NCBI RefSeq assembly: GCF_024223415.1
Contig: NZ_CP100504.1
Source of the DNA: Escherichia coli
Lineage (GTDB): Bacteria > Pseudomonadota > Gammaproteobacteria > Enterobacterales > Enterobacteriaceae
DNA: 63,428 bases
Strand: one strand, 5' to 3'
This document shows positions 1 to 63,428 of this stretch, in pieces (position 1 is the first letter of the stretch; the number at the start of each line of letters is the position of its first letter). Position numbers and translations under genes: made by a program. The notes below the pieces were generated by a model. The model had not been told where the DNA came from, did not search any database, and worked only from the letters and a program-made list of their open reading frames with translations.

Positions 1-858
1 GTGACTGATCTTCAACAAACGTATTACCGCCAGGTAAAGAACCCGAATCCGGTGTTCACACCCCGTGAAGGTGCCGGAACGCTGAAGTTTTGCGAAAAAC
101 TGATGGAAAAGGCGGTGGGCTTCACCTCCCGTTTTGATTTCGCCATTCATGTGGCACACGCCCGTTCGCGTGGTCTGCGCCGGCGCATGCCGCCGGTACT
201 GCGTCGACGGGCCATTGATGCGCTGCTGCAGGGGCTGTGTTTCCACTATGACCCGCTGGCCAACCGCGTCCAGTGCTCCATCACCACACTGGCCATTGAG
301 TGCGGACTGGCGACGGAGTCTGCTGCCGGAAAACTCTCTATCACCCGTGCCACCCGCGCCCTGACGTTCCTCGCAGAGCTGGGCCTGATTACCTACCAGA
401 CGGAATATGACCCGCTTATCGGGTGCTACATTCCGACCGACATCACGTTCACACCGGCACTGTTTGCCGCTCTCGATGTGTCTGAGGTGGCGGTGGCAGC
501 TGCGCGCCGCAGTCGTGTGGAATGGGAAAACAGACAGCGCAAGAAGCAGGGACTGGATGCACTGGGTATGGATGAACTGATAGCGAAAGCCTGGCGTTTT
601 GTGCGTGAGCGTTTCCGCAGTTACCAGACAGAGCTTAAGTCCCGGGGAATAAAGCGTGCCCGTGCGCGTCGTGATGCGGACAGGGAACGTCAGGATATTG
701 TCACCCTGGTGAAACGGCAGCTGACGCGCGAAATCGCGGAAGGGCGCTTCACTGCTAATCGTGAGGCAGTAAAACGCGAAGTGGAGCGTCGTGTGAAGGA
801 GCGCATGATTCTGTCACGTAACCGTAATTACAGCCGGCTGGCCACAGCTTCCCCCTGA
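1..858 (+). CDS. repA1: IncFII replication initiator RepA1
   Basis: 285-aa ORF with GTG start at base 1; translation matches the RepA1 initiator of R100/R1-type plasmids; start overlaps the end of the tap leader peptide that begins at 63362. Confidence 0.9.
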
Positions 859-879
859 AAGTGACCTCCTCAGAATAAT

Positions 880-1300
880 CCGGCCCGCGCCGGAGGCATT
901 CGCACGCCTGAAGCCCGTCAGTGCACAAAAAATCAGCACCACATACAAAAAACAACCTCACCATCCACCTTCTGGAGCATCCGCTTCCCCCTGTTTTTGA
1001 TGCAAAACACCTCTCACAGACGGGGAATTTTGCTTGTCCACATTTAACTGCAAGGGACTTCCCCATAAGGTTACAACCGTTCATTCCATAAAGCGCCAGC
1101 CGACAGCCTTACAGGGTGCAATGTATCTTTTAAACACCAGTTTATATCTCCTTTAAACTACCTAATTACATTCATTTAAAAAGAAAACCTGTTCACTGCC
1201 TGTCCTGTGGACAGACAGATAGCACCTCCCACCGCAAGCGGCGGGCCCCGACCGGAGCCATTTTAGTTACAACACTCAAATACAACCACCAGGAAAACCC
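880..1300. other. oriR region (vegetative origin, approximate)
   Basis: Non-coding stretch just downstream of repA1 with a DnaA-box-like ttgtccaca (~1035) and an AT-rich tract (~1128-1190); position as in R1/R100. Boundaries are approximate. Confidence 0.35.
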
Positions 1301-1457
1301 CGGTCCAGCGCAGAACCGAAACCACAAAGCCCCTCCCTCATAACTGAAAAGCGGCCCCGCTCCGGCCCAAAGGGCCGGAACAGAGTCGCTTTTAATTATG
1401 AATGTTGTAACTAAACATCATCATCGCTGTCAGTCTTCTCGCTGGAAGTATTAAGTA

Positions 1458-1495
1458 CACGCTCGTAAGCGGCCCTGACGGCCCGCTAACGCGGA
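1458..1495. repeat. ~32-bp direct repeat, left copy, flanking the TA module
   Basis: cacgctcgtaagcggccctgacggcccgcta recurs at 2627-2670 as ctcgctcgtaagcggccctgaaggctcgctta. Confidence 0.7.
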
Positions 1496-1926
1496 GATAC
1501 GCCCCGACTTCGGGTAAACCCTCGTCGGGACCACTCCGACCGCGCACAGAAGCTCTCTCATGGCTGAAAACGGGTATGGTCTGGCAGGGCAAGGGATGGG
1601 TAAGGTGAAATCTATCAATCAGTACCGGCTTACGCCGGGCTTCGGCGGTTTTACTCCGGTATCACATGTAACCACAGCGTGCCGCCTTACATGCCGCTGG
1701 CGCGGCATAAGCATATGTTGGTGGCTGTGTCTGAAAGGTTATATACTCTGCATAAAACCTGACAACACGCAGATTGCCAGGCAAATGAGCATTATGCATC
1801 CGGTTATCGCCTGCCTGTGAAACAATATCACCGGGGCGAATATCGATACTCTGACTCGTTATACCCATGCGTGCGGCATCAAAAAACCTGCAATTGCCCT
1901 TTATTGAATGAAAGGGGGAGTCAATT

Positions 1927-2190
1927 ATGAATAGCACCACACATTACGAAAACGCCAATTTCCTGCGCGAGCTGGCCGAAAGCCTGCCTCGTATTTTTCC
2001 AGAAGGCAGTACAGACAAGTCTGCACTATTGCAACGCCTCGCTAATGAAGAACTGGCACGGGCGGAATACGACGAACAGATCCGAGCGAAAGTTGCCGCT
2101 GCTCGCGCCGATAAGCGGCCGGGAATGAGTTCCGTGCAACTGCGCCAGCAACTACAGGGACGTTATCAGGAACTGCGCAATGAGTTATGA
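1927..2190 (+). CDS. putative antitoxin partnered with ParE/RelE-family toxin
   Basis: 87-aa ORF overlapping the downstream toxin ORF by 11 nt; small, helical-looking protein; classic type II TA arrangement. Confidence 0.55.
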   Translation: MNSTTHYENANFLRELAESLPRIFPEGSTDKSALLQRLANEELARAEYDEQIRAKVAAARADKRPGMSSVQLRQQLQGRYQELRNEL

Positions 2191-2479
2191 AATAGAATGG
2201 CGACCAGGTGCGATTGAGGATATAACGGCGTTGTTTGAATATCTGGCCGAGAATGCATCTCTTTGGGATGCAAGGAACGTGACAGAGCGTCTGATCACTG
2301 CAACCGATCGTCTGGCAGATTACCCCAGGCTGTATGAAACAGATGAACGCTATGGCGAAGGGGTTCGCCGTATTAGCTTACTTGGGCAGCATGTACTTTA
2401 TGAAGTGAATGATAAGGCCCGTCGTGTCAATATCCTGGCGGTTGTAGGCCAGCGTCAGAATCCCCGATTCATTCTTTGA
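2180..2479 (+). CDS. ParE/RelE-family toxin (plasmid stabilisation)
   Basis: 99-aa ORF with a ParE/RelE-like sequence pattern, translationally coupled to the upstream small ORF. Confidence 0.7.
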   Translation: MSYEIEWRPGAIEDITALFEYLAENASLWDARNVTERLITATDRLADYPRLYETDERYGEGVRRISLLGQHVLYEVNDKARRVNILAVVGQRQNPRFIL

Positions 2480-2626
2480 GTGCCCGGCTTGATGCGGGCT
2501 TACCAGGAATCACGGTTTGGGAGCCGCCTGGAGAAATGAAATTTTCCCATGCTAAGAGTATTGAGTTGAACTAGTAGAATTGACAATTCAAAAACTGAGA
2601 ACATGAAGAAACCCTATACGTCTGTC

Positions 2627-2670
2627 ATACTCGCTCGTAAGCGGCCCTGAAGGCTCGCTTACTCGACATC
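2627..2670. repeat. ~32-bp direct repeat, right copy, flanking the TA module
   Basis: Partner of the 1458-1495 repeat; lies just downstream of the ParE/RelE toxin gene. Confidence 0.7.
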
Positions 2671-2836
2671 CGTTAGTTATAACGTCAGAAGAATTATCGA
2701 GCTTTACTCAAGATCTTCTTCGTCAATCTCCAGCCATCCACGATAAGCTGACTCTGTATCTTTCACATCGTTTTGAGTCATATCAGCATTGCGTAGAAAA
2801 TTAAAAGCTGCCGCACAAAATTGATCTTCCAGGTAT

Positions 2837-3112
2837 TTGAAATACTCCAAACCTATATCCAGCCCCAGCTGCTTTGGCGAGAGAATATCAACTGAACTGG
2901 AGTTCGTCAGAAAAATCTGCCGGGCTGAAGGTGAAACTGAGGCTGATGACGATAAATTAGTGGATGAATTTCGTCGATTAGCTGAACACCCTGATGGTTC
3001 TGATCTTATTTATTATCCAAGGGATGACCGTGAGGACAGTCATGAAGGTATCGTAAAAGAAGTGAAGGAATGGCGAGCCAAAAACGGCAAGCCGGGGTTT
3101 AAACAGGGCTGA
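2837..3112 (+). CDS. colicin/pyocin DNase-type immunity protein (Im family), orphan
   Basis: C-terminal two thirds resemble Im2/Im7/Im9 immunity proteins (HPDGSDLIYYP ... EWRAKNGKPGFKQG); N-terminus atypical; no nuclease colicin gene in the window. Confidence 0.6.
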   Translation: MKYSKPISSPSCFGERISTELEFVRKICRAEGETEADDDKLVDEFRRLAEHPDGSDLIYYPRDDREDSHEGIVKEVKEWRAKNGKPGFKQG

Positions 3113-3164
3113 GGATCTTTGCTAAAGGATTAGCTGAAAATATGGATACCAGCTGTTCACTTCC

Positions 3165-3186
3165 AGAGCGGGCTGTTGCCCGCTCT
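3165..3186. terminator. stem-loop between convergent imm and MFS genes
   Basis: Perfect inverted repeat agagcgggc-tgtt-gcccgctct lying between the imm stop (3112) and the MFS stop (3190). Confidence 0.5.
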
Positions 3187-3189
3187 GCG

Positions 3190-4422
3190 TCATGTTGCCG
3201 CCAGCGGGCGACAGATCGCCCGCAGGGCGACGGCGCTGCACAGCGGAAACAGCGCCAGCAGAAGCCAGGGATAAACCGCCTGCGGCGACGGAATGAGCGC
3301 CTGGTCAAGTAAATGACCGAGCAGTAAATTCCCGGCTAACACCGCGCACCCTCCTGCGGTGGCGAGCGCTCCGTAGTGGGCGCCCAGCGTCGACTCCTCG
3401 GCGAACAGCGGGATCAGATCCTTGGCTGCGGGCACTAACAGCATCTGGCCGAGGGTGAGCAGCGTGACAAAACCAGCCGCCGGCATTAACCGCAGCCAAC
3501 TTTCGGCGGGTGGGGCGGCGGCGAATAACGCCACGCTGGCAAAGGAAGCCGACAGCAGCAGAAAGCCCACCGGCAGGATGCGCACGGCGCCCATTCGCCG
3601 GGCGAAGCGGGCGAGAGGGAGCTGGAGGGTGATAATCAACAGCGAGGCCAGCATAAAGAGCGGCGCCAGATCCTGCTCGCGGCCGCCGGAACGTTGGATC
3701 TCCACCGGCAGAGCGAGGTAGAGTTGGTTGTAGCTCAACAGCCATGAGCTGTAGGCGAGAATAAACGCGACAAAGCGCGGCTGGCGCAAAGGCGTCCACC
3801 ATGGGACTCGTCTGCGCGTTGTTGTCGTGTGCCCGTCGGCGGGCAGACCGAAAAAGAGCACCGCCAGCGCCAGAAGAAATATTCCCGCGCCGGCGAGGGC
3901 GATATGTCGAAAGCCGATCCCGCTCAGCACGCCTCCGGCCACCGGGCCGATCACCGCTCCCAGTTCACCGCATACCGCAAACAGCGCAAACCACTCGGCG
4001 CGGCTGCGTTTCCCGTTGGCCTGGCTGTGGGTACCGGCCCGCGCCAGCAGGGCCTCTATCGACGGGGAGAACAGGGCGCCGCCGACGCCGGTCAGGCAGG
4101 CGCCAAGGATAATGGCCCACAGCGACGCCCCGCACGCCAGCAGGAGAAAACCGGCGACGCGAACGACGCAGCCGGCGAGAATGATCGCCTTAGCGCCATA
4201 GCGGTCGGCCAGCGTCCCGCCGAGGATAAACATCCCCTGTTGGGAGAAGGTACGCAGCCCGAGGATCAGGCCGATAAGTCCGCCTGAGAGCAGCATGTCG
4301 TCGCGCAGGAAGAGGGCGAGGAAAGGTACGACCGCGTAAAAGCCAATATTAAAAACGAACTGGCTTCCCAGTAACACCGGAGGCCAGAGGGTTGCCGCAG
4401 GGCGCAGGGAGAAAAGAGGCAT
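3190..4422 (-). CDS. eitD: MFS transporter, EitD-like
   Basis: Multi-pass membrane protein; likely start is the internal Met (MPLFSL) 12 nt after the upstream ATPase stop; last gene of a four-gene operon in eitABCD order. Confidence 0.55.
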   Translation of the reverse strand: MPLFSLRPAATLWPPVLLGSQFVFNIGFYAVVPFLALFLRDDMLLSGGLIGLILGLRTFSQQGMFILGGTLADRYGAKAIILAGCVVRVAGFLLLACGASLWAIILGACLTGVGGALFSPSIEALLARAGTHSQANGKRSRAEWFALFAVCGELGAVIGPVAGGVLSGIGFRHIALAGAGIFLLALAVLFFGLPADGHTTTTRRRVPWWTPLRQPRFVAFILAYSSWLLSYNQLYLALPVEIQRSGGREQDLAPLFMLASLLIITLQLPLARFARRMGAVRILPVGFLLLSASFASVALFAAAPPAESWLRLMPAAGFVTLLTLGQMLLVPAAKDLIPLFAEESTLGAHYGALATAGGCAVLAGNLLLGHLLDQALIPSPQAVYPWLLLALFPLCSAVALRAICRPLAAT

Positions 4423-4433
4423 ATCCGCCCAAC

Positions 4434-5198
4434 CTAAACGATGAAATGAATGTGCTTTTTGCCGTGGTAAGGGGAGATCTCGATTTTGGTTTTCACCCGG
4501 AAAACGTCCCACAGCAGCGCTTCGGACAAAATCTCCTCCGGCGTCCCGCTGGCGAGGATCTGCCCCTGCTGCATCACGATCAGCGAATCGCAGAACATCG
4601 CGGCATGGTTAAGATCGTGAATGGCCACAATGCTGGTTACCGGCAGCTCGCTGATCAACTGCATTAACTGCATCTGATGGTGTATATCCAGATGGTTGGT
4701 CGGCTCATCCAGCAGGATTTCGCTCGGGCTCTGCGCCAGCGCGCGGGCGATATGCACCCGCTGCCGCTCGCCGCCGGAGAGGCTTAACCATCCCTGTTCG
4801 CTTTTCTCCAGCATAGCTACCCGCTGCAGCGCGGCGGCAATCGCTTCGTCATCCTGAGCGCTCCAGTTTGAGAACGGAGAGTGGTGGGGAATGCGTCCCA
4901 GGCGCACGACGTCGCGCACCCGCATATTGGCCTCGGTCATGCCGTGTTGCTCGACGCAAGCCACGCGGCGGGCGAGCTGCTTTTTCGCCATCCGGGCGAT
5001 ATCCTGGCCGTCGAGGGTGACGCGACCTGCATCCGGGCGGCGCAGGCCCGCCAGAACGCGCAGCAGCGAGGATTTGCCGCAGCCGTTGGGCCCCAGCAGT
5101 CCGACCGTTTCGCCGCGCGGCACCCGCAGCGAGACATTATTGACGATGACCTTTTTGCCTGCCTTCCAGGTGATATTTTCAGCGCAAATACTCATCAC
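4434..5198 (-). CDS. eitC: ABC transporter ATP-binding protein (iron-siderophore type), EitC-like
   Basis: 254 aa with Walker A GPNGCGKSS, ABC signature LSGGERQR and Walker B LLDEP. Confidence 0.6.
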   Translation of the reverse strand: MMSICAENITWKAGKKVIVNNVSLRVPRGETVGLLGPNGCGKSSLLRVLAGLRRPDAGRVTLDGQDIARMAKKQLARRVACVEQHGMTEANMRVRDVVRLGRIPHHSPFSNWSAQDDEAIAAALQRVAMLEKSEQGWLSLSGGERQRVHIARALAQSPSEILLDEPTNHLDIHHQMQLMQLISELPVTSIVAIHDLNHAAMFCDSLIVMQQGQILASGTPEEILSEALLWDVFRVKTKIEISPYHGKKHIHFIV

Positions 5199-6232
5199 TT
5201 ATTCCTTGAGCGGTAGATAATCACGGCAAAGAAAGGCACCCCAACCAGGGCGGTTACTACCCCAACGGGCAGACTTTGCGGGGCAATCAGCAGGCGCGAC
5301 GCAATGTCCGCCAGTACCATCAATATCGCCCCTGCCAGCGCGCTGGCGATCAGCAACGTTCGGTGCAGCGGGCCAAAGAAGAAACGCATCACGTGCGGCA
5401 CCACCAGGCCAACAAAGCCGATTGAGCCGGCCATGCTGACGATGGTGGCGGTGATCAGCGCCGCAGTGGTGAAGAGGATCAGGCGCACGCGCGGCACAGC
5501 AATCCCCAGCGAGGCGGCGGCATCGTCGCCGAAGGTGAACGCGTCCAGCGCCCGGGCATACCACAGGCAGACCGCCAGACCCGCGAGCACCACCACGATG
5601 ACCAACTGGAATTCGGGCCAGCGGACGCCGCTGAAGCTGCCCAGCAGCCAGAACATCACATCGCGCGCCTGCTGCGCGCTGGCGGTGGTGCTGATGGTAT
5701 AGGCCGTGATGGCGTTAAATAACTGCGAGGCGGCGACGCCCGCAAGAATCGTACGCTCATTGCCGCCGCGCGCGCCGTTAGTCAGCAAGGCGACAAAGGC
5801 GAAGGCGGCGAAGGCCCCGGCAAAGGCGCCTGCCGAGAGGGAAATTGCGCCAGAGCCAAGGCCCAGCACCACGATCGACACCGCGCCGGTGGAGGCCCCG
5901 GCGGAGACGCCGAGGACGTAGGGTTCGGCGAGGGCATTCTTCAGCAAGCTTTGCAGCACGACACCGCAGATAGCGAGGCCGGCGCCGCAGCAGGCGGCGA
6001 CCAGCGCGCGGCTGAGGCGGAAATCCCAGATAACGCTCTCATAGATATGGTTGAGCGGCTCAGCGGTTAAGCCGGTTCTGTTGCTGATAGCATAAAAGAC
6101 ATTCTGCAGCGGGATGGCCAGCTCGCCAACGCTGACGCCCACAGCGATCACCAGCGCCAGCACGATCGCTGCCAGTATACACCAGCCGGTGAGCAGTATG
6201 CTGCGGCACGTCTCAATCGCGCCGACGCTCAT
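5195..6232 (-). CDS. eitB: ABC transporter permease (FecCD family), EitB-like
   Basis: 345-aa polytopic membrane protein; stop and start overlap the flanking operon genes. Confidence 0.6.
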   Translation of the reverse strand: MSVGAIETCRSILLTGWCILAAIVLALVIAVGVSVGELAIPLQNVFYAISNRTGLTAEPLNHIYESVIWDFRLSRALVAACCGAGLAICGVVLQSLLKNALAEPYVLGVSAGASTGAVSIVVLGLGSGAISLSAGAFAGAFAAFAFVALLTNGARGGNERTILAGVAASQLFNAITAYTISTTASAQQARDVMFWLLGSFSGVRWPEFQLVIVVVLAGLAVCLWYARALDAFTFGDDAAASLGIAVPRVRLILFTTAALITATIVSMAGSIGFVGLVVPHVMRFFFGPLHRTLLIASALAGAILMVLADIASRLLIAPQSLPVGVVTALVGVPFFAVIIYRSRNK

Positions 6233-7230
6233 CAGTTCAGCCCCATTTTTCTCAGCTGCTCGCCCACCTGCTCCGCGCCGTAAAGCGTGCGAATGGTCGG
6301 ATTCATCGCCTGACCGTCCATGACCACGATATGGCCTTTTTTCACCGCCTCCAGCTGGCTGACGGCGGGATCGCTTTTGAGGAATTTGATCTTCTCCTCG
6401 GCTTTATCCAGCGCCCAGCGGTTACGATCCAGGCTGGCGACCACGATCACATCCGGGTTGGCGGCAATAATGCTCTCCCAGCTCACCGTGGGCCACTCGG
6501 TTTCGGAGGTAATCGCATTATGTCCGCCCAGCACGCTGGCGATAAATCCGGAGGCGCTGTTTTTGCCGCCGACATAGGCATCGGCCGAAGGTGAGGCGCT
6601 GGAGAACCAGAAGACGAAGGAGAGATCCTTTTTGCTTTTACCAAACTCCTGGCGCAGGTCGGCTTCACGTTTTTTGAAATCGGCAATCAGCGCCTGACCA
6701 CGATCTTCGACGTTGAAAATGCGGGAAAAATCGCTAATTTCCTGATACAGCCAGGTCATATCCCACAGCTTTTGCCGGCTGCCGTACATATCGCCGGTGG
6801 CCTTTTTGGTGGCGCATACCCCCGGTGAGAGGTAGCTGTTCACGCCGACGGTGGCGAGATCTTCACGCCTGGCGACTTTGCTTTCCGGCCCCAGCAGCAG
6901 CGGCAACTGGGCGGGAACGAAATCAGGATTTTGCGCCAGCACCGATTCCAGGCTCGGAATTTCCACCGTCAAGGTTTTAATCTTCGCGTTTTGCTCAGCC
7001 AGCTGCGGTAAAACGCTGTTCGGCCAGAAGGCGCTGGCGACCACCTGCTTTTGCAGCCCGAGCAGCAGCAGAATTTCGACCGTATTTTGCCCCAGCGCGA
7101 CCACGCGCTCCGGCGGCCGGGTGAAGGTCTCCTGATAGCCGCAGTTTTCAATCGTCAGGGGGTAGGTTGTTGCCAGCGCGGAACTGACGGCGGTGAACAT
7201 CAAGCCTAACGCGCAAAGGATCTTCTTCAT
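6232..7230 (-). CDS. eitA: periplasmic substrate-binding protein, EitA-like
   Basis: 332 aa with an N-terminal signal peptide (MKKILCALGLMFTAVSSALA); first gene of the operon. Confidence 0.6.
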   Translation of the reverse strand: MKKILCALGLMFTAVSSALATTYPLTIENCGYQETFTRPPERVVALGQNTVEILLLLGLQKQVVASAFWPNSVLPQLAEQNAKIKTLTVEIPSLESVLAQNPDFVPAQLPLLLGPESKVARREDLATVGVNSYLSPGVCATKKATGDMYGSRQKLWDMTWLYQEISDFSRIFNVEDRGQALIADFKKREADLRQEFGKSKKDLSFVFWFSSASPSADAYVGGKNSASGFIASVLGGHNAITSETEWPTVSWESIIAANPDVIVVASLDRNRWALDKAEEKIKFLKSDPAVSQLEAVKKGHIVVMDGQAMNPTIRTLYGAEQVGEQLRKMGLN

Positions 7231-8084: not shown

Positions 8085-8438
8085 TTAATTTATTAGCTTC
8101 ATCGCATTTTTTTTGGTCTCTTCATCACTTTTTTGCTCTTGTTGTGAAGAGGATTGAGTGACTATTGAAGAATTAAAATCGGCCATCTCTTTTGGAAATA
8201 GCGATCTCAATATATTCACGATATCTGAAAATGTGGTTTCTTTCGTCAGCAATTCACATAAAAGGAAAGGGGCCCTGGGATCTTGTCTGTATAAGGCCAG
8301 ACCTGCCGTCAGTGCAGCCCGGTTAAGGCGGCTGCGTTCCCCTTGCGGGATACTGTCCAGTGTATCACAAACAATTTTATCTGTTTGATTTACATCTGGA
8401 TTTAGCTTAAAGGCAATGGTTCTGCGCTTGTCCATCAT
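8085..8438 (-). CDS. parR: partition protein ParR (StbB), centromere-binding adaptor
   Basis: 117-aa product matching R1 ParR ([43 protein letters not shown]...). Confidence 0.9.
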   Translation of the reverse strand: MMDKRRTIAFKLNPDVNQTDKIVCDTLDSIPQGERSRLNRAALTAGLALYRQDPRAPFLLCELLTKETTFSDIVNILRSLFPKEMADFNSSIVTQSSSQQEQKSDEETKKNAMKLIN

Positions 8439-9400
8439 TAATTACCTATGAGATACATACCGTTAACTAAATCATATTGAGAGTTATTGGTTTTAAAAAA
8501 ACGTTCATCACGAATCTGTGTGTGTTTTTTTACTGCATCGCATATTAATTCTGCGCCACCACCTATAACCATAACATGAGTATAACCAGAAAATTCATTG
8601 AGTGTATTTAATACACGTTGCTCAAGTTTACGAAGTGCTTCATTCATTGCTTCGGTGACTATTGATATTTTGTTCTCATCATTAATTCGTTGCTTCAGAT
8701 AGTTATTATCTTTTCTGTGAATAATTATATCGTCAGCAAGATAGCTACTTCCTTTTGTTCTCGCAAGAGAAAGGGCATCTTTTACTGCAGATGTGACCAG
8801 AGATACACCAAGAGATGAGTCTCCGTATATTTTACTGATCCCCGATAATTTCCCCATTACCTGAGAAATATCTAATGTGGTGCCCCCGAGATCTATAATT
8901 AATAAAGAATCTAACTCATCCAGTTCTTGTAGAACTTCATAACCTGCCGGTATAGATTCAGGCATGACTTTTACATCTTTTATTGTGAATGTATCCCCAC
9001 CATTTAATGTAATTTTTTTCCGGAAGTTTGCTTTCTTACGCTCAATATTTTCCGTATTGGGTTGGTTATTCCTGTCGTAATACTCTGTCAGAGGAAGTGT
9101 GCAAACAATATCCACTTCGCTTACCGGCAGACCACTGGTCAGTAAGGCGTGGTGCACCGCAACGACATTAACGTCGCTGTATTGCCATGCGATATTGGTT
9201 GTGACTACAGCATCCGGGCTGATTGGATCAAATGAATACTGTTCGCTGTTCAGTGTGTAGTTAAAGACCTTTTTATCACCAAAAGAAACTGCCCACTCGC
9301 GTTTGAAGCTGTTCGGGCTAATGTGCTGTTTAATTGTTCCGTCGCTTTCCTGCCACTGTAGTTTGATGTTTGTTGAACCGTCATCAATGAATACCAACAT
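8438..9400 (-). CDS. parM: actin-like partition ATPase ParM (StbA)
   Basis: 320-aa product matching R1 ParM ([21 protein letters not shown]...). Confidence 0.9.
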
Positions 9401-12324: not shown

Positions 12325-12514
12325 TACAGGGGCAGGCGGTGGAGGCCGCCTGTCAGCCCGCGCGAAAACCCCTGGCAGGCTGACGCCTGCCGGAAGGGAA
12401 GCGGGCCACGCTGGCGCGTCGCCCGTTACCCTTCCCGTCTGTGATGTGTCTGACTCAGGAGTGTTTCTTTCTTATGTTATGGAACTGTTCCTGATGTTGT
12501 TGTTCCTTTATCTG

Positions 12515-13125
12515 CTGCTCTGATTCTGACTACTGCAGTGTTGTTCTGTCTGCCGGGCGCACCTTCGGCTCCCGGCTGCCTGGCGGCATCCGGTCGTCAG
12601 GCCCGACTCCGACAGGCAGCTGCTGGCGCACCCGCCAGTCTCCGCCGAACCCGCTGGCGCGGTTTCGGGCTGTCGCTACGGTCCGATGCGTGAAAACCCC
12701 GGGCTTGCAGCGACCGTTCCGGTCGCGCCGCCTCTGTCGCGCCGTGGCCTGCGCTCCAGGCATCCCGGCAAAAAGACGCCGGGATGTAAGGCGCAACGCC
12801 GTTTCGCAAACCGCGCTTCACGTCGTTGCTGCGGGTCCCTGCTCATTGCCTGCCGGGTGCCACACACCCGTATGAGTCCCTGTCGCCGGGGGCATAGACA
12901 GCCACAACCTGCCGCACTGACTGTCCAGGGTAAATGAACAGCCCACAAAATTTTTTACCCAAAACCCGGTAAAAAATTTTGCGTTCTGCCCAGGACAGGT
13001 GCGTCAGGCCGTGGCAGTGATGCCCCTTGCGGCGAAGGTTCTCAAACGGGTGAAGTTCATACCACAGGGAATACAGCAGCAGGTTCCCGCGAAACGTCAA
13101 AACTGCGGCTCCCGAAACTCAACGG
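12515..13125. repeat. leading-region ~620-bp direct repeat, copy 1 (Frpo/ssi-like)
   Basis: Near-identical by eye to 15867-16496 and 21269-21897; GC-rich with internal hairpins such as aaaattttttacc-(9 nt)-ggtaaaaaatttt. Confidence 0.85.
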
Positions 13126-13363
13126 GTGATGTTCTTTAAAAATCAGGATTTATTTCAGGCTCCGGCAATACGCATTTATGTGTTCTGTCAGTCATCCGGC
13201 TGGCAGGTAATGAGAACGCAGGAACAGAAGGAGGAAAACACCGGAGAACGTCAGACGCAGATATGAAAAAAGCAGGTCAGGGACCTGCTTAATCCACGCC
13301 GTAAGAATTGCGCAACCAATTTTGACGGCATTGTTAACCAATTTGTCATAAGGAGTTTCATTT

Positions 13364-13594
13364 ATGACGGTAAGTATTGTTTCACCTTCCGCAGCGGCTG
13401 TAAAGCCCCGCCGTCATCCCCGTTTCAGACGCGAAGACATCCCCGCGCCGGAAATTGACCCCGTGCTGAAAGCCTTCGGGCGACACATAGCCCGGAGTTT
13501 TCACCGGGGGCGTGGTGTACACATCCCCGCCATGAAAAACACGGCCTTCGGGCAGGTGCTCCGCACACTCGAACTGAAACGCGCTTTTAACTGA
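13364..13594 (+). CDS. small basic hypothetical protein
   Basis: 76-aa ORF with RBS aggag 8 nt upstream; first ORF downstream of repeat copy 1. Confidence 0.4.
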   Translation: MTVSIVSPSAAAVKPRRHPRFRREDIPAPEIDPVLKAFGRHIARSFHRGRGVHIPAMKNTAFGQVLRTLELKRAFN

Positions 13595-45696: not shown

Positions 45697-48515
45697 ATGA
45701 AGTTTATGTGATTGCCGGTGGTGAGTGGTTGCGGAATAACCTGAATGCCATTGCCGCCTTTATGGGAACCAGAACGTGGGATTCCATTGAAAAAATTGCG
45801 CTCACATTGTCTGTTCTCGCGGTGGCCGTAATGTGGGTACAGCGGCACAACGTGATGGATTTGCTGGGCTGGGTGGCCGTGTTTGTGCTTATCAGCCTGC
45901 TGGTTAATGTCCGTACATCGGTGCAGATTATTGATAACAGTGACCTGGTCAAAGTTCACCGGGTGGATAATGTGCCGGTCGGACTGGCGATGCCACTTTC
46001 ACTGACGACCCGTATCGGGCATGCAATGGTGGCCAGTTACGAGATGATCTTCACGCAACCGGACAGTGTCACCTACAGCAAAACGGGGATGCTGTTTGGC
46101 GCAGAACTGGTATCAAAAAGCACCGACTTTTTGTCCCGTAATCCGGAAATCGCCAATCTTTTCCAGGATTATGTGCAGAACTGCGTGATGGGGGATATTT
46201 ACCTGAACCACAAATATACGCTGGAGGAGCTGATGGCCTCCGCTGATCCCTACACGCTGATTTTTTCCCGCCCCAGCCCGCTGCGGGGCGTTTATGACAG
46301 CAATAATAATTTCGTAACCTGTAAGGACGCTTCGGTTTCGCTGAAAGACAAGCTGAATCTGGACACACAGAGTGGCGGAAAAACCTGGCATTATTATGCC
46401 CAGCAGCTATTTGGCGGACGCCCTGATCCTAACCTGCTGTTCAGTACGCTGATTGGCGACAGTTACAGTTACTTCTATGGCTCAAGTAAATCAGCCAGCC
46501 AGATCATCCGCCAGAATGTCACCATCAATGCGCTGAAGGAGGGGATCACCAGTTATGCCGCACGTAATGGTGATTCGGCCAGCCTGGTGAATCTGGCCAC
46601 CACGTCATCGATGGAGAAACAACGTCTGGCACATGTATCAATCGGTCATGTGGCGATGCGGACACTGCCCATGACGCAGACCATCCTGACGGGGATCGCC
46701 ATCGGTATTTTCCCGCTCCTGGTACTGGCGGCTGTATTCAACAAACTGACGCTGTCCGTCCTGAAAGGCTATGTGTTTGCCCTGATGTGGTTGCAGTCAT
46801 GGCCAATGTTGTACGCCATTCTGAACAGCGCCATGACATTTTATGCAAAGCAGAATGGTGCACCGGTGGTGCTCTCGGAAATTTCACAGATACAGCTGAA
46901 ATACTCCGATCTGGCTTCCACTGCCGGGTATCTTTCCATGATGATCCCGCCATTATCCTGGATGATGGTCAGGGGGCTCGGGGCAGGATTTTCCAGTGTG
47001 TACAGCCATTTCGCTTCCTCTGCTATCAGCCCGACCGCCAGTGCAGCAGGCAGTGTGGTTGACGGTAATTACTCCTACGGCAACATGCAGACGGAGAACG
47101 TGAACGGCTTCAGCTGGAGCACCAACAGCACCACGTCGTTTGGTCAGATGATGTACCAGACCGGCAGTGGCGCAACTGCCACACAGACCCGTGACGGTAA
47201 TATGGTGATGGATGCAAGCGGAGCGATGTCCCGGTTACCGGTCGGCATCAATGCAACGCGTCAGATTGCGGCGGCACAACAGGAAATGGCCCGGGAAGCA
47301 TCGAACAGAGCAGAAAGTGCCCTGCATGGGTTCAGCAGCAGTATTGCCAGTGCCTGGAACACGCTCAGTCAGTTTGGTTCTAACCGGGGGAGCAGTGATT
47401 CTGTCACCGGTGGTGCTGACAGTACGATGAGTGCACAGGACTCCATGATGGCCAGCCGTATGCGCAGTGCAGTGGAAAGCTATGCGAAGGCGCATAATAT
47501 CAGTAATGAGCAGGCGACTCAGGAACTGGCATCCAGAAGTACGAGAGCTTCTGCCGGGATGTATGGAGATGCTCATGCTGAATGGGGGGTTAAACCTGGA
47601 ATTCTTGGTGTTGGTGGCGGCTTAGGTGTTAAAGGTGGTGGTCGCGCTGGTATTGATTGGGAAGATAATGATGCGCATACGGCAAGTAGTAATACTCAGT
47701 CGAGCCATAATGCTCGTCATGATATCGATGCCAGAGCTACACAAGACTTTAAAGAGGCCAGCGATTACTTTACCAGTCGCAAGGTCAGTGAGTCCGGCAG
47801 CCATACTGACAATAATGCTGATTCCCGTGTGGATCAGTTGTCTGCAGCCCTGAATTCAGCGAAGCAGAGTTACGACCAGTTCACGACGAATATGACCCGC
47901 AGCCATGAATATGCTGAAATGGCATCCCGTACTGAAAGCATGAGTGGGCAGATGAGTGAAGACCTGTCGCAACAGTTTGCACAGTATGTGATGAAACACG
48001 CGCCGCAGGATGCCGAAGCTATTCTGACAAACACCAGTTCACCGGAGATTGCAGAACGCCGTCGGGCTATGGCGTGGTCTTTTGTTCAGGAACAGGTGCA
48101 GCCTGGTGTTGATAATGCCTGGCGTGAATCCCGTGGGGACATCGGTAAAGGAATGGAGAGCGTACCTTCGGGTGGTGGCAGCCAGGATATTATTGCTGAT
48201 CATCAGGGGCATCAGGCCATTATTGAGCAAAGAACGCAGGACAGTAATATCCGTAATGATGTAAAACATCAGGTTGATAATATGGTCACAGAATACCGAG
48301 GCAATATCGGAGATACTCAGAGCAGCATACGTGGCGAAGAAAATATTGTAGGAAGACAGTATTCTGAACTACAAAATCACCATAAAACAGAGGCATTATC
48401 TCAGAATAATAAATATAATGAAGAAAAATCGGGTCAGGAAAGAATGCCCGGGGCTGACAGTCCACAGGAACTGATGAAAAGAGCAAAGGAGTATCAGGAT
48501 AAGCACAAGCAATAA
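45693..48515 (+). CDS. traG: TraG (pilus assembly, mating-pair stabilisation, entry-exclusion target)
   Basis: 940 aa with N-terminal polytopic domain and large periplasmic C-terminal domain. Confidence 0.95.
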   Translation: MNEVYVIAGGEWLRNNLNAIAAFMGTRTWDSIEKIALTLSVLAVAVMWVQRHNVMDLLGWVAVFVLISLLVNVRTSVQIIDNSDLVKVHRVDNVPVGLAMPLSLTTRIGHAMVASYEMIFTQPDSVTYSKTGMLFGAELVSKSTDFLSRNPEIANLFQDYVQNCVMGDIYLNHKYTLEELMASADPYTLIFSRPSPLRGVYDSNNNFVTCKDASVSLKDKLNLDTQSGGKTWHYYAQQLFGGRPDPNLLFSTLIGDSYSYFYGSSKSASQIIRQNVTINALKEGITSYAARNGDSASLVNLATTSSMEKQRLAHVSIGHVAMRTLPMTQTILTGIAIGIFPLLVLAAVFNKLTLSVLKGYVFALMWLQSWPMLYAILNSAMTFYAKQNGAPVVLSEISQIQLKYSDLASTAGYLSMMIPPLSWMMVRGLGAGFSSVYSHFASSAISPTASAAGSVVDGNYSYGNMQTENVNGFSWSTNSTTSFGQMMYQTGSGATATQTRDGNMVMDASGAMSRLPVGINATRQIAAAQQEMAREASNRAESALHGFSSSIASAWNTLSQFGSNRGSSDSVTGGADSTMSAQDSMMASRMRSAVESYAKAHNISNEQATQELASRSTRASAGMYGDAHAEWGVKPGILGVGGGLGVKGGGRAGIDWEDNDAHTASSNTQSSHNARHDIDARATQDFKEASDYFTSRKVSESGSHTDNNADSRVDQLSAALNSAKQSYDQFTTNMTRSHEYAEMASRTESMSGQMSEDLSQQFAQYVMKHAPQDAEAILTNTSSPEIAERRRAMAWSFVQEQVQPGVDNAWRESRGDIGKGMESVPSGGGSQDIIADHQGHQAIIEQRTQDSNIRNDVKHQVDNMVTEYRGNIGDTQSSIRGEENIVGRQYSELQNHHKTEALSQNNKYNEEKSGQERMPGADSPQELMKRAKEYQDKHKQ

Positions 48516-50785: not shown

Positions 50786-52777
50786 ATGAGTTTTAACGCA
50801 AAGGATATGACCCAGGGCGGTCAGATTGCGTCCATGCGTATCCGCATGTTCAGCCAGATCGCCAATATCATGCTTTACTGCCTGTTTATTTTTTTCTGGA
50901 TACTCGTTGGTCTGATTTTATGGGTAAAAATAAGCTGGCAGACGTTTGTGAACGGCTGTATTTACTGGTGGTGTACCACGCTGGAAGGCATGCGGGATTT
51001 AATCAAGTCCCAGCCAGTATATGAGATTCAGTATTACGGCAAAACCTTCCGGATGAACTCTGCCCAGGTACTGCATGATAAATATATGATCTGGTGCGGT
51101 GAGCAGCTATGGTCCGCATTCGTTCTGGCGTCTGTCGTGGCCCTGGTTATTTGCCTGATCACCTTCTTTGTTGTCTCCTGGATTCTGGGGCGTCAGGGTA
51201 AACAACAGAGCGAAAATGAAGTCACAGGTGGTCGTCAGCTGACAGACAATCCGAAAGACGTTGCCCGGATGCTGAAAAAAGACGGCAAGGACTCCGATAT
51301 CCGGATTGGCGACCTGCCGATTATCCGGGATTCCGAAATCCAGAACTTCTGTCTGCACGGCACGGTCGGGGCCGGTAAGTCGGAGGTTATCCGTCGTCTG
51401 GCCAACTACGCCCGTCAGCGCGGTGATATGGTGGTGATTTATGACCGTTCAGGGGAATTTGTTAAAAGTTACTATGATCCCTCCATCGATAAAATCCTGA
51501 ATCCGCTGGATGCCCGCTGTGCCGCATGGGATTTGTGGAAGGAGTGTCTGACACAGCCGGATTTTGATAATACCGCAAATACTCTGATCCCTATGGGTAC
51601 AAAAGAGGACCCGTTCTGGCAGGGTTCAGGACGTACCATTTTTGCGGAAGCGGCGTACCTGATGCGTAATGACCCCAACCGCAGCTACAGCAAACTGGTG
51701 GACACACTGCTTTCCATCAAAATCGAAAAACTGCGTACCTTCCTGCGTAATTCTCCGGCGGCCAACCTGGTGGAAGAGAAAATTGAGAAAACGGCGATTT
51801 CCATCCGTGCTGTGCTGACCAACTACGTGAAAGCCATCCGTTACCTGCAGGGGATTGAGCATAACGGTGAGCCCTTCACCATACGTGACTGGATGCGTGG
51901 TGTCCGGGAAGATCAGAAAAACGGCTGGCTGTTTATTTCGTCGAACGCCGACACCCATGCCTCCCTGAAGCCGGTGATCTCCATGTGGCTGTCCATTGCC
52001 ATTCGTGGTCTGCTGGCAATGGGAGAAAACCGTAACCGTCGTGTGTGGTTTTTCTGTGATGAGTTACCCACGTTACACAAACTGCCGGACCTGGTGGAGA
52101 TCCTGCCGGAAGCCCGTAAGTTCGGTGGCTGTTATGTGTTTGGTATCCAGTCCTATGCCCAGCTGGAAGATATCTACGGTGAGAAAGCGGCGGCCACGCT
52201 GTTTGACGTCATGAACACCCGTGCTTTTTTCCGTTCCCCGAGCCATAAGATTGCAGAGTTCGCTGCCGGTGAGATTGGTGAGAAAGAGCACCTGAAAGCC
52301 AGCGAGCAGTATTCCTACGGTGCTGACCCGGTACGTGACGGGGTATCGACCGGTAAGGATATGGAGCGTCAGACGCTGGTCAGTTATTCCGACATTCAGT
52401 CTCTGCCGGATCTGACCTGCTATGTCACTCTGCCCGGACCGTATCCGGCAGTAAAACTCTCCCTGAAATATCAGGCACGACCGAAGGTCGCTCCGGAGTT
52501 TATTCCGCGTGACATCAACCCGGAAATGGAGAACCGTCTGAGTGCCGTACTTGCCGCAAGGGAAGCAGAAGGTCGTCAGATGGCCAGCCTCTTTGAACCG
52601 GAGGTTGCCTCCGGAGAAGATGTGACTCAGGCTGAACAGCCACAACAGCCACAACAGCCACAACAGCCACAACAGCCACAACAGCCACAACAGCCGGTGT
52701 CTCCTGCCATCAACGATAAGAAGTCAGATTCAGGTGTGAATGTTCCGGCAGGGGGATCGAGCAGGAGCTGGAAATGA
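50786..52777 (+). CDS. traD: type IV coupling protein TraD
   Basis: 663 aa with N-terminal TM segments, Walker A GTVGAGKS and a C-terminal QPQ repeat tail. Confidence 0.95.
52637..52690. repeat. 9-bp tandem repeat (cagccacaa)n inside traD
   Basis: About six tandem units encoding the (QPQ)n tract in the TraD C-terminal tail. Confidence 0.9.
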
Positions 52778-52974
52778 AACCGGAAGAAGAGATGGAACAG
52801 CAACTGCCACCCGGGATCAGTGAATCCGGTGAAGTGGTGGATATGGCCGCTTATGAGGCATGGCAACAGGAAAATCATCCGGACATCCAGCAGCAGATGC
52901 AGCGTCGTGAAGAGGTGAACATTAATGTGCACCGGGAGCGTGGGGAGGATGTTGAGCCGGGAGATGATTTCTGA
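52774..52974 (+). CDS. small acidic hypothetical protein between traD and traI
   Basis: 66-aa ORF overlapping the traD stop and ending exactly at the traI start. Confidence 0.45.
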
Positions 52975-55900
52975 TGATGAGTATCGCGCAGGTCAGATCG
53001 GCCGGAAGTGCCGGTAACTATTATACCGACAAGGATAATTACTATGTACTGGGCAGCATGGGAGAACGCTGGGCCGGCAGGGGGGCTGAACAGCTGGGAC
53101 TGCAGGGCAGTGTCGATAAGGATGTTTTTACCCGTCTTCTGGAGGGAAGGCTGCCGGACGGAGCGGATCTAAGCCGCATGCAGGATGGCAGTAATAAGCA
53201 TCGTCCCGGCTACGACCTGACCTTCTCCGCCCCCAAAAGTGTCTCCATGATGGCCATGCTCGGGGGGGACAAACGTCTTATTGAAGCACATAACCAGGCC
53301 GTGGACTTTGCTGTTCGTCAGGTGGAGGCGCTGGCCTCCACACGGGTGATGACGGACGGACAGTCAGAAACGGTACTGACCGGTAATCTGGTGATGGCAC
53401 TGTTTAACCACGACACCAGTCGCGATCAGGAACCACAGTTACATACGCATGCGGTGGTGGCTAATGTCACGCAGCATAACGGTGAGTGGAAGACACTGAG
53501 CAGTGACAAAGTGGGGAAAACGGGGTTCATTGAGAATGTGTACGCTAATCAGATTGCCTTTGGCAGGCTCTACCGGGAAAAACTGAAAGAGCAGGTTGAG
53601 GCGCTGGGCTATGAAACCGAAGTGGTGGGTAAGCACGGTATGTGGGAGATGCCGGGCGTACCGGTGGAGGCCTTTTCCGGACGCTCACAGACTATCCGGG
53701 AGGCCGTCGGGGAAGATGCCTCGCTGAAATCCCGGGATGTGGCGGCACTGGATACGCGAAAATCCAAACAGCACGTCGATCCTGAAGTCAGAATGGCTGA
53801 ATGGATGCAGACGCTGAAGGAAACCGGGTTCGACATCCGGGCATATCGTGACGCGGTGGATCAGCGTGCGGAGACCCGCACGCAGGCGCCCGGGGCTGTT
53901 TCACAGGAGGGGCCGGATGTGCAGCAGGCGGTGACACAGGCGATTGCCGGATTAAGTGAACGAAAAATGCAGTTTACGTACACGGACGTGCTGGCCAGAA
54001 CGGTCGGTATACTGCCGCCGGAAAATGGTGTGATTGAACGGGCACGCGCCGGTATCGATGAGGCCATCAGTCGTGAGCAGCTTATCCCCCTCGACCGTGA
54101 GAAGGGGCTGTTCACATCAGGAATTCATGTGCTCGATGAGCTGTCCGTCCGGGCACTCAGTCGTGACATCATGAAACAGAACCGGGTGACCGTACATCTG
54201 GAGAAAAGTGTCCCCCGGACGGCTGGTTACAGCGATGCGGTCAGTGTTCTGGCACAGGACCGTCCGTCGCTGGCCATTGTGTCCGGGCAGGGCGGTGCAG
54301 CCGGGCAGCGTGAGCGGGTGGCTGAACTGGTCATGATGGCCCGGGAGCAGGGGCGGGAGGTGCAGATTATCGCCGCTGACCGTCGCTCGCAGATGAACCT
54401 GAAGCAGGATGAACGGCTGTCCGGTGAGCTGATAACCGGACGTCGTCAGCTGCAGGAGGGCATGGCCTTCACGCCGGGCAGTACTGTTATCGTCGACCAG
54501 GGCGAAAAACTCTCCCTGAAAGAGACGTTAACCCTGCTGGACGGTGCCGCACGTCATAACGTACAGGTCCTGATAACCGACAGCGGGCAGCGAACCGGTA
54601 CAGGCAGTGCACTGATGGCCATGAAGGATGCCGGGGTGAACACGTATCGCTGGCAGGGCGGAGAACAGCGACCGGCCACCATCATCAGTGAACCGGACCG
54701 GAATGTCCGCTATGACCGGCTGGCCGGAGATTTTGCGGCCAGCGTGAAAGCCGGAGAAGAGAGCGTGGCACAGGTCAGCGGGGTACGGGAACAGGCCATA
54801 CTGACACAGGCCATTCGCAGTGAGCTGAAAACACAGGGCGTGCTCGGACACCCGGAGGTGACCATGACGGCACTGTCACCGGTCTGGCTGGACAGCCGGA
54901 GCCGTTATCTGCGGGATATGTACCGACCGGGGATGGTGATGGAGCAGTGGAACCCGGAGACACGCAGTCATGACCGCTATGTTATCGACCGGGTGACGGC
55001 GCAGAGTCACAGCCTGACCCTGCGGGATGCGCAGGGCGAAACGCAGGTGGTGCGTATTTCCTCCCTGGACAGCAGCTGGTCGCTGTTCCGGCCGGAAAAA
55101 ATGCCGGTGGCAGACGGCGAGCGACTGAGGGTGACAGGGAAAATTCCCGGACTCCGCGTCTCCGGCGGTGACCGCCTGCAGGTGGCATCCGTCAGTGAAG
55201 ATGCGATGACGGTTGTTGTGCCGGGGCGGGCTGAACCGGCCACCCTGCCTGTGGCTGATTCACCGTTCACGGCACTGAAGCTGGAGAACGGCTGGGTGGA
55301 AACGCCCGGGCATTCCGTCAGCGACAGTGCGAAGGTTTTTGCCTCCGTCACACAGATGGCAATGGACAACGCCACCCTGAACGGTCTGGCCCGCAGTGGT
55401 CGTGATGTCCGGCTGTATTCTTCACTGGATGAAACCCGTACTGCGGAAAAACTTGCCCGCCATCCCTCCTTTACGGTGGTTTCTGAGCAGATAAAGGCGC
55501 GTGCCGGTGAGACATTGCTGGAAACCGCTATCAGTCTGCAGAAAGCCGGGCTTCACACGCCGGCACAGCAGGCTATTCATCTGGCCCTTCCTGTGCTGGA
55601 AAGTAAAAACCTGGCCTTCAGCATGGTGGACCTGCTGACAGAGGCGAAGTCGTTTGCTGCAGAAGGAACCAGTTTTACTGAACTGGGAGGGGAAATCAAT
55701 GCGCAGATAAAACGCGGTGATTTACTGTATGTGGATGTGGCAAAAGGCTATGGCACAGGCCTGCTGGTTTCCCGTGCGTCGTATGAGGCAGAAAAGAGCA
55801 TTCTTCGCCATATTCTCGAAGGTAAGGAGGCGGTCACGCCGCTGATGGAGAGAGTACCTGGCGAACTCATGGAGAAACTGACATCAGGACAGCGTGCCGC

Positions 55901-59755: not shown

Positions 59756-59968
59756 ATGAATGGATTCAGAAACAGTTCACGGAACGGTCAGGTCTGGCGC
59801 TGGCAGCGTGCCGGAAGCCGGGCCGTTATTCTGGAGGTCAGTGGACGCTGGATGGAAGCGGCAGAAGCATGGCGACGGGCTGCCGGTGTTGCACCCCGGA
59901 CAGACTGGCAGCAGTTTGCCCGAAAAAGGGCTGAACAATGCCACCGACGCTGCCGGGGAAGGGTGTAA
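59756..59968 (+). CDS. small Arg/Trp-rich hypothetical protein
   Basis: 70-aa ORF with strong RBS agaggag 8 nt upstream. Confidence 0.45.
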   Translation: MNGFRNSSRNGQVWRWQRAGSRAVILEVSGRWMEAAEAWRRAAGVAPRTDWQQFARKRAEQCHRRCRGRV

Positions 59969-60212
59969 CGAAAAAGCAGCCTTCATTACTCCAGGGATTC
60001 AGAAGGCTGAATAATGCATGAGATTTGCTTTTTTTAATATCCGGTCGGGCAGTATGACCGGACAGTTCTGAGTAGCACAGAGTTTTTTCCGTATTAAGTC
60101 GTGATTTTATATTTTGTGATTAATTTCGCAAAATAAGGTGTTATTCAGTGTGTGCTGCGATATTCAGGATTACCTGAAATACAGGTGCCATTTATCTGAT
60201 ATGGAGAATAAT

Positions 60213-62161: not shown

Positions 62162-62206
62162 CGGATTAAAAATAGATGTAAATAAAAAGCATACTTATTG
62201 GCTGGA

Positions 62207-62250
62207 GTGACGCCTTCGTGCTTCGGTAGTAAAAAACGGGAAATGAAGGT
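62207..62250. repeat. partial copy C of the conserved intergenic motif
   Basis: tgacgccttcgtgcttcggtagtaaaaaacgggaaatgaagg shares both ends with copy B but lacks the central part; lies upstream of srnB. Confidence 0.6.
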
Positions 62251-62375
62251 AATAGTCAGCAACAGGGAATGTGGTATTATCGCGGCGGGTGTCTGAGCCT
62301 TTCTGGTTCAGGCAAGACGCAGGTACCAGAAATGCGAAGACCCCACTTGTTAATCCATTAACTCGTGAGGTCTGC

Positions 62376-62582
62376 ATGAAGTACTTGAACACTACTGATT
62401 GTAGCCTCTTCCTTGCAGAGAGGTCAAAGTTTATGACGAAATATGCCCTTATCGGGTTGCTCGCCGTGTGCGCCACGGTGTTGTGTTTTTCACTGATATT
62501 CAGGGAACGGTTATGTGAACTGAATATTCACAGGGGAAATACAGTGGTGCAGGTAACTCTGGCCTACGAAGCACGGAAGTAA
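62376..62582 (+). CDS. srnB: SrnB (Hok/Gef-family membrane toxin locus)
   Basis: 68-aa ORF MKYLNTTDCSLFLAERSKFMTKYALIGLLAVCATVLCFSLIFRERLCELNIHRGNTVVQVTLAYEARK; Hok-like core starts at MTKYAL; a GC-rich fold-back region follows. Confidence 0.8.
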   Translation: MKYLNTTDCSLFLAERSKFMTKYALIGLLAVCATVLCFSLIFRERLCELNIHRGNTVVQVTLAYEARK

Positions 62583-62865
62583 GCTGCCGGGCGGGGACGG
62601 AAGTCCCCGCTTTCCGGGAGTGTGAGGTATTTCAGGGGCAGACACCCTACACGTCAGAAACCGCCGGTCCCGCCCGGGGCCGGCACACAGGTTAAGGCAT
62701 TTCCTGTTTTTCAGCCATTTCGCAACAAAATTCACACTAAACGACAGTAATCCCCGTTGATTTGTGCGCCAACACAGATCGTCGTCACAATTCTCAAGTC
62801 GCTGATTTCAAAAAACTGTAGTATCCTCTGCGAAACGATCCCTGTTTGAGTATTGAGGAGGCGGG

Positions 62866-63126
62866 ATGTCGCAGATCGAAAATGCAGTAACTTCCTCACC
62901 GAAACGCATTTACAGAAAAGGTAATCCGTTAACCGGAGCCGAGAAACAACGTATATCTGTTTCCCGGAAAAAGGGGACACATAAAGCGATTAATGTTTTC
63001 ATCCAGAGTGAACTCAAAGATGATTTGACACAGCTTTGTAAAGATTCGGGCTTAACTCAAAAAGAAATGATAGAGCACTGGATTTTGAAAGAAAAAGCTG
63101 CGATGGATAATGCGAATAGAAGGTAA
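62866..63126 (+). CDS. repA2: replication regulator RepA2 (CopB)
   Basis: 86 aa starting MSQIENAVTSS..., CopB-like; sits upstream of the copA/tap/repA1 control region. Confidence 0.8.
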   Translation: MSQIENAVTSSPKRIYRKGNPLTGAEKQRISVSRKKGTHKAINVFIQSELKDDLTQLCKDSGLTQKEMIEHWILKEKAAMDNANRR

Positions 63127-63169
63127 CTAAGTTACTTTCTTGAACATTTGAATTGCGGATGCTAGATTA

Positions 63170-63265
63170 CTGATCGTTTAAGGAATTTTGTGGCTGGCCA
63201 CGCCGTAAGGTGGCAGGGAACTGGTTCTGATGTGGATTTACAGGAGCCAGAAAAGTGAAAACCCC
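63170..63265 (-). ncRNA. copA: CopA antisense RNA (approximate)
   Basis: Stem-loop-rich region between repA2 and tap; placed by analogy with R1/R100 copy-number control; ends not determinable by eye. Confidence 0.4.
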
Positions 63266-63361
63266 GATAATCTTCAGCAAGTTTGGCGACTAAGAGAAGA
63301 TTAACGGGGCCATCTAAAAACCGTATAGCCAACAATTCAGCTATGCGGGGAGTATAGTTAT

Positions 63362-63428
63362 ATGCCCGGAAAAGTTCAAGACTTCTTTCTGTGCTCACTC
63401 CTTCTGCGCATTGTAAGTGCAGGATGGT
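63362..63428 (+). CDS. tap: RepA leader peptide Tap (RepA6), 5' part; continues on bases 1-6
   Basis: [22 protein letters not shown] encoded to the window end; joining to bases 1-6 gives ...WCD-stop, with the repA1 GTG overlapping (translational coupling). Confidence 0.8.

Follow-up and report, generated by a model that had tools for sequence, protein, structure and literature searches.

Whether the two ends of a sequenced stretch of DNA carry two partial replicons or the two halves of one is the question raised by contig NZ_CP100504.1 of the Escherichia coli assembly GCF_024223415.1, a stretch of 63,428 nt that was analysed as a whole and is called the window below. The tap gene, which encodes the RepA leader peptide Tap, runs into the last base of the window, and the replication initiator gene repA1 starts at base 1. 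A first-pass annotation had proposed that the window is a whole circular plasmid, in which repA2, copA, tap, repA1 and oriR form one replicon rather than two partial ones. Our analyses make it highly probable that the window is a complete circular F-like plasmid of ~63.4 kb, with a single IncFII (R1/R100-type) replicon, written from base 1 of the repA1 GTG.

The reading frame of tap ties the two ends together. Its ATG lies at 63362, and the 67 bases of its first part (63362..63428, + strand) comprise 22 codons and the first base of codon 23. When the ends were joined in silico, the frame went on as T|GT GAC TGA and ended in ...WCD-stop, giving an open reading frame (ORF) of 24 codons with no base missing or extra. 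Window bases 1-5 finish the two missing codons, that is, the remainder of codon 23 and codon 24, and the TGA stop occupies bases 6-8, so that the second part of tap (1..8, + strand) has its last base at window position 8. The earlier proposal had the frame and its ending right and let bases 1-6 complete them; the stop needs bases 1-8. It was also right that the repA1 GTG, at bases 1-3, overlaps tap, and the tap/repA1 overlap is 8 nt (GTGACTGA). With the ends joined in silico, the sequence across 63428|1 would read ...GGATGGTGTGACTGA....

The joined Tap peptide scored 60.6 bits against TIGR03475 ('RepA leader peptide Tap'; cut-off 35.05) and is 100% identical to the annotated Tap of plasmid pGZM7d. 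The score for the Tap model and the overlap between the tap stop and the repA start were obtained only with the window ends joined. In plasmids pTB-nb3 and pGZM7d, the Prokaryotic Genome Annotation Pipeline (PGAP) placed a tap of 75 nt and a repA of 858 nt with an 8-nt overlap precisely where the window ends meet.

A predicted RNA hairpin over the repA1 start crosses the window ends, as tap does. In the ViennaRNA prediction, the hairpin, join(63395..63428, 1..4) on the + strand, has its 5' arm, loop and most of its 3' arm in 63395..63428 and its last four pairs in 1..4, where GTGA pairs with TCAC at 63395-63398 and would thereby sequester the repA1 GTG. The predicted structure, with a local free energy of -18.4 kcal/mol, pairs tap codons 12-16 with the repA1 Shine-Dalgarno sequence (AGGA, 63421-63424) and the GTG, and a ribosome completing tap would have to melt it. 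All the retrievable relatives are at least 90% identical across this stretch, too similar for a covariation test; the only change seen there, an A-to-G substitution at 63397, occurs in pMTY9803_IncFII and would leave the pair intact as G-U. In 1994, Blomberg and colleagues reportedly described an inhibitory structure in R1, which the predicted hairpin fits. The putative hairpin draws on local prediction and on published work on R1.

The right end of the window holds repA2/copB, CopA and most of tap, and the left end holds the end of tap, repA1 and the oriR region. The repA1 gene (1..858, + strand), which encodes an IncFII replication initiator of 285 amino acids from a GTG start, scored 588.5 bits against TIGR03474 ('incFII family plasmid replication initiator RepA'; cut-off 446.9) and 621.7 bits against NF010313 (cut-off 478). 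Its product is 96.5% identical to RepA of plasmid pSK0832S, and the R1 repA primer of PMC5883639 has the sequence of window bases 1-20. On the joined circle, the repA1 frame stays open for 12 nt further back, to an in-frame GTG at 63417-63419 that would give a 289-amino-acid form. This GTG was rejected as the main repA1 start: the AGGA Shine-Dalgarno sequence lies downstream of it, and both PGAP and the R1 primer use the base-1 GTG.

The repA2/copB gene (62866..63126, + strand; an ORF of 86 amino acids), which specifies the transcriptional repressor of the repA promoter, scored 137 bits against NF010256 ('replication regulatory protein RepA'; cut-off 87) and is 100% identical to WP_021536205.1 of pGZM7d. 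The CopA antisense RNA (63253..63344, - strand), whose + strand complement is CopT in the repA mRNA leader, matched the full model, positions 1-92, of Rfam RF00042 with 99.7 bits (gathering score 60). The putative Shine-Dalgarno sequence of tap (GGGGAG, 63347..63352, + strand), read from the sequence and given its role after the R1 model, starts 3 nt past the CopA-complementary region and lies 9 nt ahead of the tap ATG.

A promoter scan of 62650-63428 reported a sole promoter-like site, TTGAAC-17-TATACT (63351..63379, - strand), which overlaps, on the opposite strand, the start codon of tap. With a -10 hexamer that stops 7 nt ahead of the 5' end of CopA, this minus-strand site, read from 63379 to 63351, was assigned as the CopA promoter. 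The same scan did not report PrepA, the repA promoter. A candidate for it, TTGAAC-17 nt-TAGATT (63140..63168, + strand), was read by eye just downstream of copB; it matches at 8 of 12 positions, which is below the scan threshold, and its position fits the R1 description in PMC5717011.

CopA, repA1 and repA2 are each present once in the window. Neither a second replicon nor a second copy of a replicon part was found by the Rfam scan, by tblastn annotation transfer from pSK0832S and pGZM7d, which also provided the gene map, or by the Pfam scan of the leftover ORFs. With each element present once and scoring above the cut-off of its family model, these results support that both ends together form a single standard IncFII (R1/R100-type) replicon, as the first-pass annotation had suggested from the sequence.

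The ends of the window are adjacent in other plasmids. A junction query made of the last 700 and the first 700 bases was searched against the plasmid collection, and it aligned as one ungapped piece (1400 query bases to 1400 record bases, 99.8% identity) at an internal position in three independent complete plasmids, pTB-nb3 (NZ_CP033634.1), NZ_LR740760.1 and pGZM7d (NZ_CP129283.1). At least 2151 plasmid records cover at least 80% of the query, and the junction is likewise contiguous in complete E. coli genomes. When the window was rotated by half its length, a single alignment to pGZM7d of 20,909 nt at 98.75% identity ran from window position 44253 through the ends to 1709. A direct overlap between the two ends, an artefact that circularisation often leaves behind, is absent at lengths of 10 nt and above, and so is a terminal inverted repeat, which would point to a linear replicon (the ends are 26% identical to each other's reverse complement). 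The window contains no N bases. The fit of the split tap is not due to chance: an arbitrary cut has a probability of about 1 in 63,428 of landing on base 1 of repA1, the two ends match each other with single-base precision, and the same closing sequence is seen in other complete records.

The position of the cut is explained by how such records are written. Among the 15 best plasmid records for window 1-25000, 8 begin at record base 1 opposite window base 1, and in the corresponding search with the last 25 kb, 7 of the top 15 records have their final base opposite 63428. We also sampled 40 records evenly spaced among the 5000 best matches to a 283-nt junction probe (from E. coli, Klebsiella and Shigella): 8 of the 40 begin exactly at the repA GTG, and 2 begin at the in-frame GTG 12 nt upstream (window 63417). 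Three complete circular RefSeq plasmids terminate in the identical ...GCAGGATGGT. Since many of the best-matching and sampled records are cut at the repA GTG, the window conforms to a widespread practice of starting IncFII records at repA. Assembly software and start-fixing tools bring a rep gene to the start of a plasmid by rotating the sequence. The cut inside tap is an effect of linearisation, a record-keeping convention and not new biology.

The content of the window agrees with this. Its length is not a round number, which suggests that the window is a whole record, and it is colinear with the complete circular plasmid pSK0832S from base 1 to 61,533. No gene is cut at the window ends except the spanning tap, and the backbone modules are present as one set in circular order. 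The ungapped junction in three plasmids, the 20.9-kb spanning alignment and the circular records linearised at the same base all favour the earlier proposal of a whole circular plasmid.

Several points weigh against this assignment. We infer the physical circularity of the molecule from its sequence and its relatives, and the closure depends on that inference. Searches of the plasmid and E. coli collections returned no record identical to the window, and the best single-record coverage of 25-kb pieces was 76-97%. The window is a mosaic relative to the databases: 1709-21885 matches pHK01-type plasmids, and its replicon and the 19 kb at the tra-distal end match E. coli plasmids from chicken and resemble pGZM7d and pMTY1886, so there is formal room for an assembly chimera elsewhere in the circle. 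Four frameshifted genes (traJ, traD, the parB-like gene and trbE) may indicate sequencing indel errors. In addition, the whole 123-nt leader folds no better than shuffled sequences (z = -1.0), and the hairpin over the repA1 start is for this reason a prediction and not a demonstration.

Of the alternatives, the one that survives best is that the circle is an assembly artefact, either a chimera of two F-like plasmids or a wrong closure, with a true molecule that differs from the window. The stretch from 44253 to 1709 matches pGZM7d at 98.75% and the best match becomes pHK01-type past 1709, three direct repeats of ~630 bp in the window could mislead an assembler, and the homopolymer indels in traJ and traD suggest error-prone reads. 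However, the junction lies mid-way in the 20.9-kb block common to one relative, so no chimera breakpoint is located there; modular recombination is the rule among F-like plasmids, relatives also diverge at 1709, and the gene order is canonical throughout. We consider an artefact of this kind very unlikely. Slightly less credible still is that the window represents part of a larger molecule (another plasmid, a cointegrate or a multimer) with half-replicons from two replicon copies, which would fit the lack of an identical complete record in the collections searched and the larger size (72-92 kb) of same-replicon relatives, but for an arbitrary cut would turn the exact Tap, the intact predicted hairpin and the ungapped junction into a coincidence of about 1 in 63,000, and is opposed by the presence of each backbone module exactly once in the usual circular order, by the unrounded length and by start and end bases that are the same as in many complete circular records.

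Taking the window as one circular plasmid, its replicon can be compared with that of R1. R1 and R100/NR1 (IncFII, RepFIIA) are like the window in the parts, in their order and in the 24-codon tap overlapping the repA GTG. In R1, the translation of repA is coupled to that of tap, and by inhibiting the latter CopA also inhibits the synthesis of RepA (PMC5717011; PMC12779154). The control logic of the window is probably that of R1.

The order on the circle would be copB/repA2, PrepA, CopT/CopA, tap, repA1 and oriR. Two promoters would transcribe repA1, one lying upstream of copB and the other being PrepA, which CopB would repress. The predicted stem would hold the repA1 Shine-Dalgarno sequence and GTG, and tap-translating ribosomes that reach the stop overlapping the repA1 start would melt this stem and permit repA1 translation. 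CopA would pair with CopT immediately ahead of the ribosome-binding site of tap, and this pairing would block tap translation, and hence RepA synthesis, and would set the copy number. RepA1 would then act at oriR, ~170 bp downstream of repA1. The translational coupling named by the first-pass annotation is the mechanism published for R1 in the two studies cited above; the parts, their order and their overlaps are present in the window, and the coupling, the control by CopA and CopB and the origin activity are probably as in the rest of the family. The copB-copA-tap-repA-oriR replicon and its translational coupling are already known, textbook plasmid biology, and the window adds nothing new to them.

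The oriR region (1018..1200, + strand) is approximate, with limits set by homology, and has an A+T content of 70-78% at 1120-1199. Within it, the DnaA box TTGTCCACA (1034-1042) differs by one mismatch from the consensus TTATCCACA, which is also the box of R1 oriR, and window 1018-1056 equals the R1 oriR DnaA-box1 primer of PMC5883639 apart from one base. A repA4-like region (1223..1581, + strand) follows oriR, with 73% and 95% identity to the 'RepA4' ORFs of pSK0832S by tblastn. The exact 39-nt context of the variant box was found in 8 PLSDB records, and the canonical context in 2762; all 8 are conjugative E. coli plasmids, mostly from poultry. The natural TTGTCCACA box might alter the dependence on DnaA or the copy number, because mutation of the oriR DnaA box in mini-R1 raised the copy number (PMC5883639).

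The replicon allele of the window is shared by the E. coli plasmids pMTY1886_IncFII (NZ_CP128973.1), pGZM7d and pTB-nb3, the latter two from chicken. These plasmids have the variant DnaA box, the tra-distal block, finO, hha and hok as in the window, and pMTY1886 has 4 mismatches in the last 1060 bases and is linearised at base 1 of the window. They differ in carrying other cargo past ~1.7 kb, with sizes of 72-92 kb; pMTY1886 carries microcin B17 and Ppl there, and pGZM7d has an integron with IS26 resistance genes. The traD gene is intact in this group, whereas it is frameshifted in the window. With the pHK01-type plasmid pSK0832S (NZ_AP046544.1), also linearised at repA, the window shares the RelE/ParE genes, the bacteriocin immunity gene, eitABCD, parMR, the leading region and the tra operon. 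In contrast to pSK0832S and the pHK01-type plasmids, the window lacks the Tn3/TEM-1 and ISEcp1/CTX-M insert and carries other alleles of copB/copA, traJ, traY, traN and traS, with 46% amino-acid identity between its copB and that of the pHK01 type. The ISEcp1-blaCTX-M and Tn3-blaTEM inserts of relatives are absent from the window, and no antibiotic resistance gene is among the annotations transferred from pSK0832S and pGZM7d.

The gene map is that of a canonical F-like plasmid. On the replicon side, repA1, oriR and the repA4 region are followed by a RelB-like/RelE-ParE pair (1927-2479), an orphan bacteriocin immunity gene, eitABCD and parMR (8088-9400). The orphan immunity gene and the siderophore-type ABC/MFS transport cluster eitABCD represent cargo (2837-7230), as in pHK01-type plasmids. 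The leading region contains DUF1281, antirestriction, DUF3560 and methyltransferase genes, ssb, a parB-like gene, psiB, psiA and hok/sok. After it come an SLT transglycosylase gene, traM and FinP on the oriT side, the traJ leader, traY through traX, and finO, and then a thermonuclease-like gene, hha, a DUF2726 gene, the second hok/sok, repA2, CopA and tap. The two hok/sok loci, one in the leading region (20665-20993) and one adjoining the replicon (62287-62582), gave Rfam sok scores of 88.9 and 93.5 bits, and each has a Hok/Gef ORF.

Three direct repeats of ~630 bp, 93-98% identical, lie in the leading region (12500-13131, 15858-16496 and 21252-21897) and are the only internal repeats of the window. 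They are located just upstream of a short hypothetical ORF and the DUF3560 gene, of ssb, and of a 95-amino-acid ORF and a DUF932 gene, respectively, and relatives annotate fragments of 'frameshifted single-stranded DNA-binding protein' at them. Presumably, they may be single-strand promoter elements (Frpo-type) of the kind known from F leading regions. The Rfam scan further identified four antisense RNAs first described in pHK01, all on the minus strand: AS-pc01 (13267-13369), AS-traG (46412-46497), AS-traI (55823-55899) and AS-pc02 (59865-60048; 202 bits), the last of which lies opposite a small ANR-type regulator ORF (59756-59965).

Of the transfer functions of an F-like conjugative plasmid (MOBF relaxase, MPF_F), the relaxase gene traI, the coupling-protein gene traD, traM, traJ and traY, the pilus genes, FinP and FinO are all present, with traJ and traD frameshifted. 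The genes traN, trbF, traY and the gene at the traS position are divergent alleles, with 53-70% identity or no match. Small ORFs with neither a Pfam match nor a pSK0832S counterpart lie between tra genes, within 31094-32238, 37022-37914, 38627-39394 and 42258-42842; one ORF of 141 amino acids between tra genes (38969-39394) gave a sub-threshold HNH match.

The traJ gene, the activator of the tra operon (24939-25595), lacks 1 nt of a T run at 25361, where GATGTTTTTTT in CP088697.1 is GATATTTTTT in the window; its product has 147 amino acids, compared with 217 in CP088697.1, and the remainder continues in another frame. This frameshift is either a homopolymer sequencing error or the mark of a transfer-dead plasmid. 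In traD (50786-52973), a G6 run of pSK0832S and pGZM7d is G5 at 52750, and the ORF ends at 52777, ~200 nt before traI, with loss of the C-terminal ~67 residues including the acidic tail ...GDDF; its Q/P repeat is 18-54 nt shorter than in relatives. The leading-region ParB/Spo0J-like gene (17398-19354) has a 2-nt deletion relative to pSK0832S in a GT-rich spot at 18569 and is split into ORFs 17398-18603 and 18530-19354. In trbE/traF (41265-42257), a 4-nt deletion at 41465, from CCCTGACTGACC to CCCTGACC, brings trbE into the frame of traF, and the two genes, which are separate and overlap in relatives, form a single ORF of 330 codons. How well the plasmid would transfer is uncertain, and sequencing errors may account for the indels in traJ and traD.

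A speculative and rather unlikely reading places the window in a rare IncFII lineage, associated mostly with poultry, in which the non-consensus DnaA box of oriR changes replication, and makes it a member that is naturally transfer-dead through the traJ and traD frameshifts and is kept by two hok/sok loci, RelE/ParE and parMR. This reading has no bearing on the split tap.

What the joined ends change is how such records are to be read. Three complete RefSeq plasmids whose records open at the repA GTG (NZ_AP046544.1, NZ_CP128973.1 and NZ_CP135673.1) have no tap annotated in their final ~1 kb, and tap is annotated in both examined relatives in which the site is internal (pTB-nb3 and pGZM7d). Cutting a record at the repA GTG appears to hide tap from the annotation pipeline. 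The window is best handled as a circle, which keeps its ends from being scored as two partial replicons, and features that cross the origin should be written as joins: tap as join(63362..63428, 1..8), and the predicted hairpin that would sequester the repA1 start likewise.

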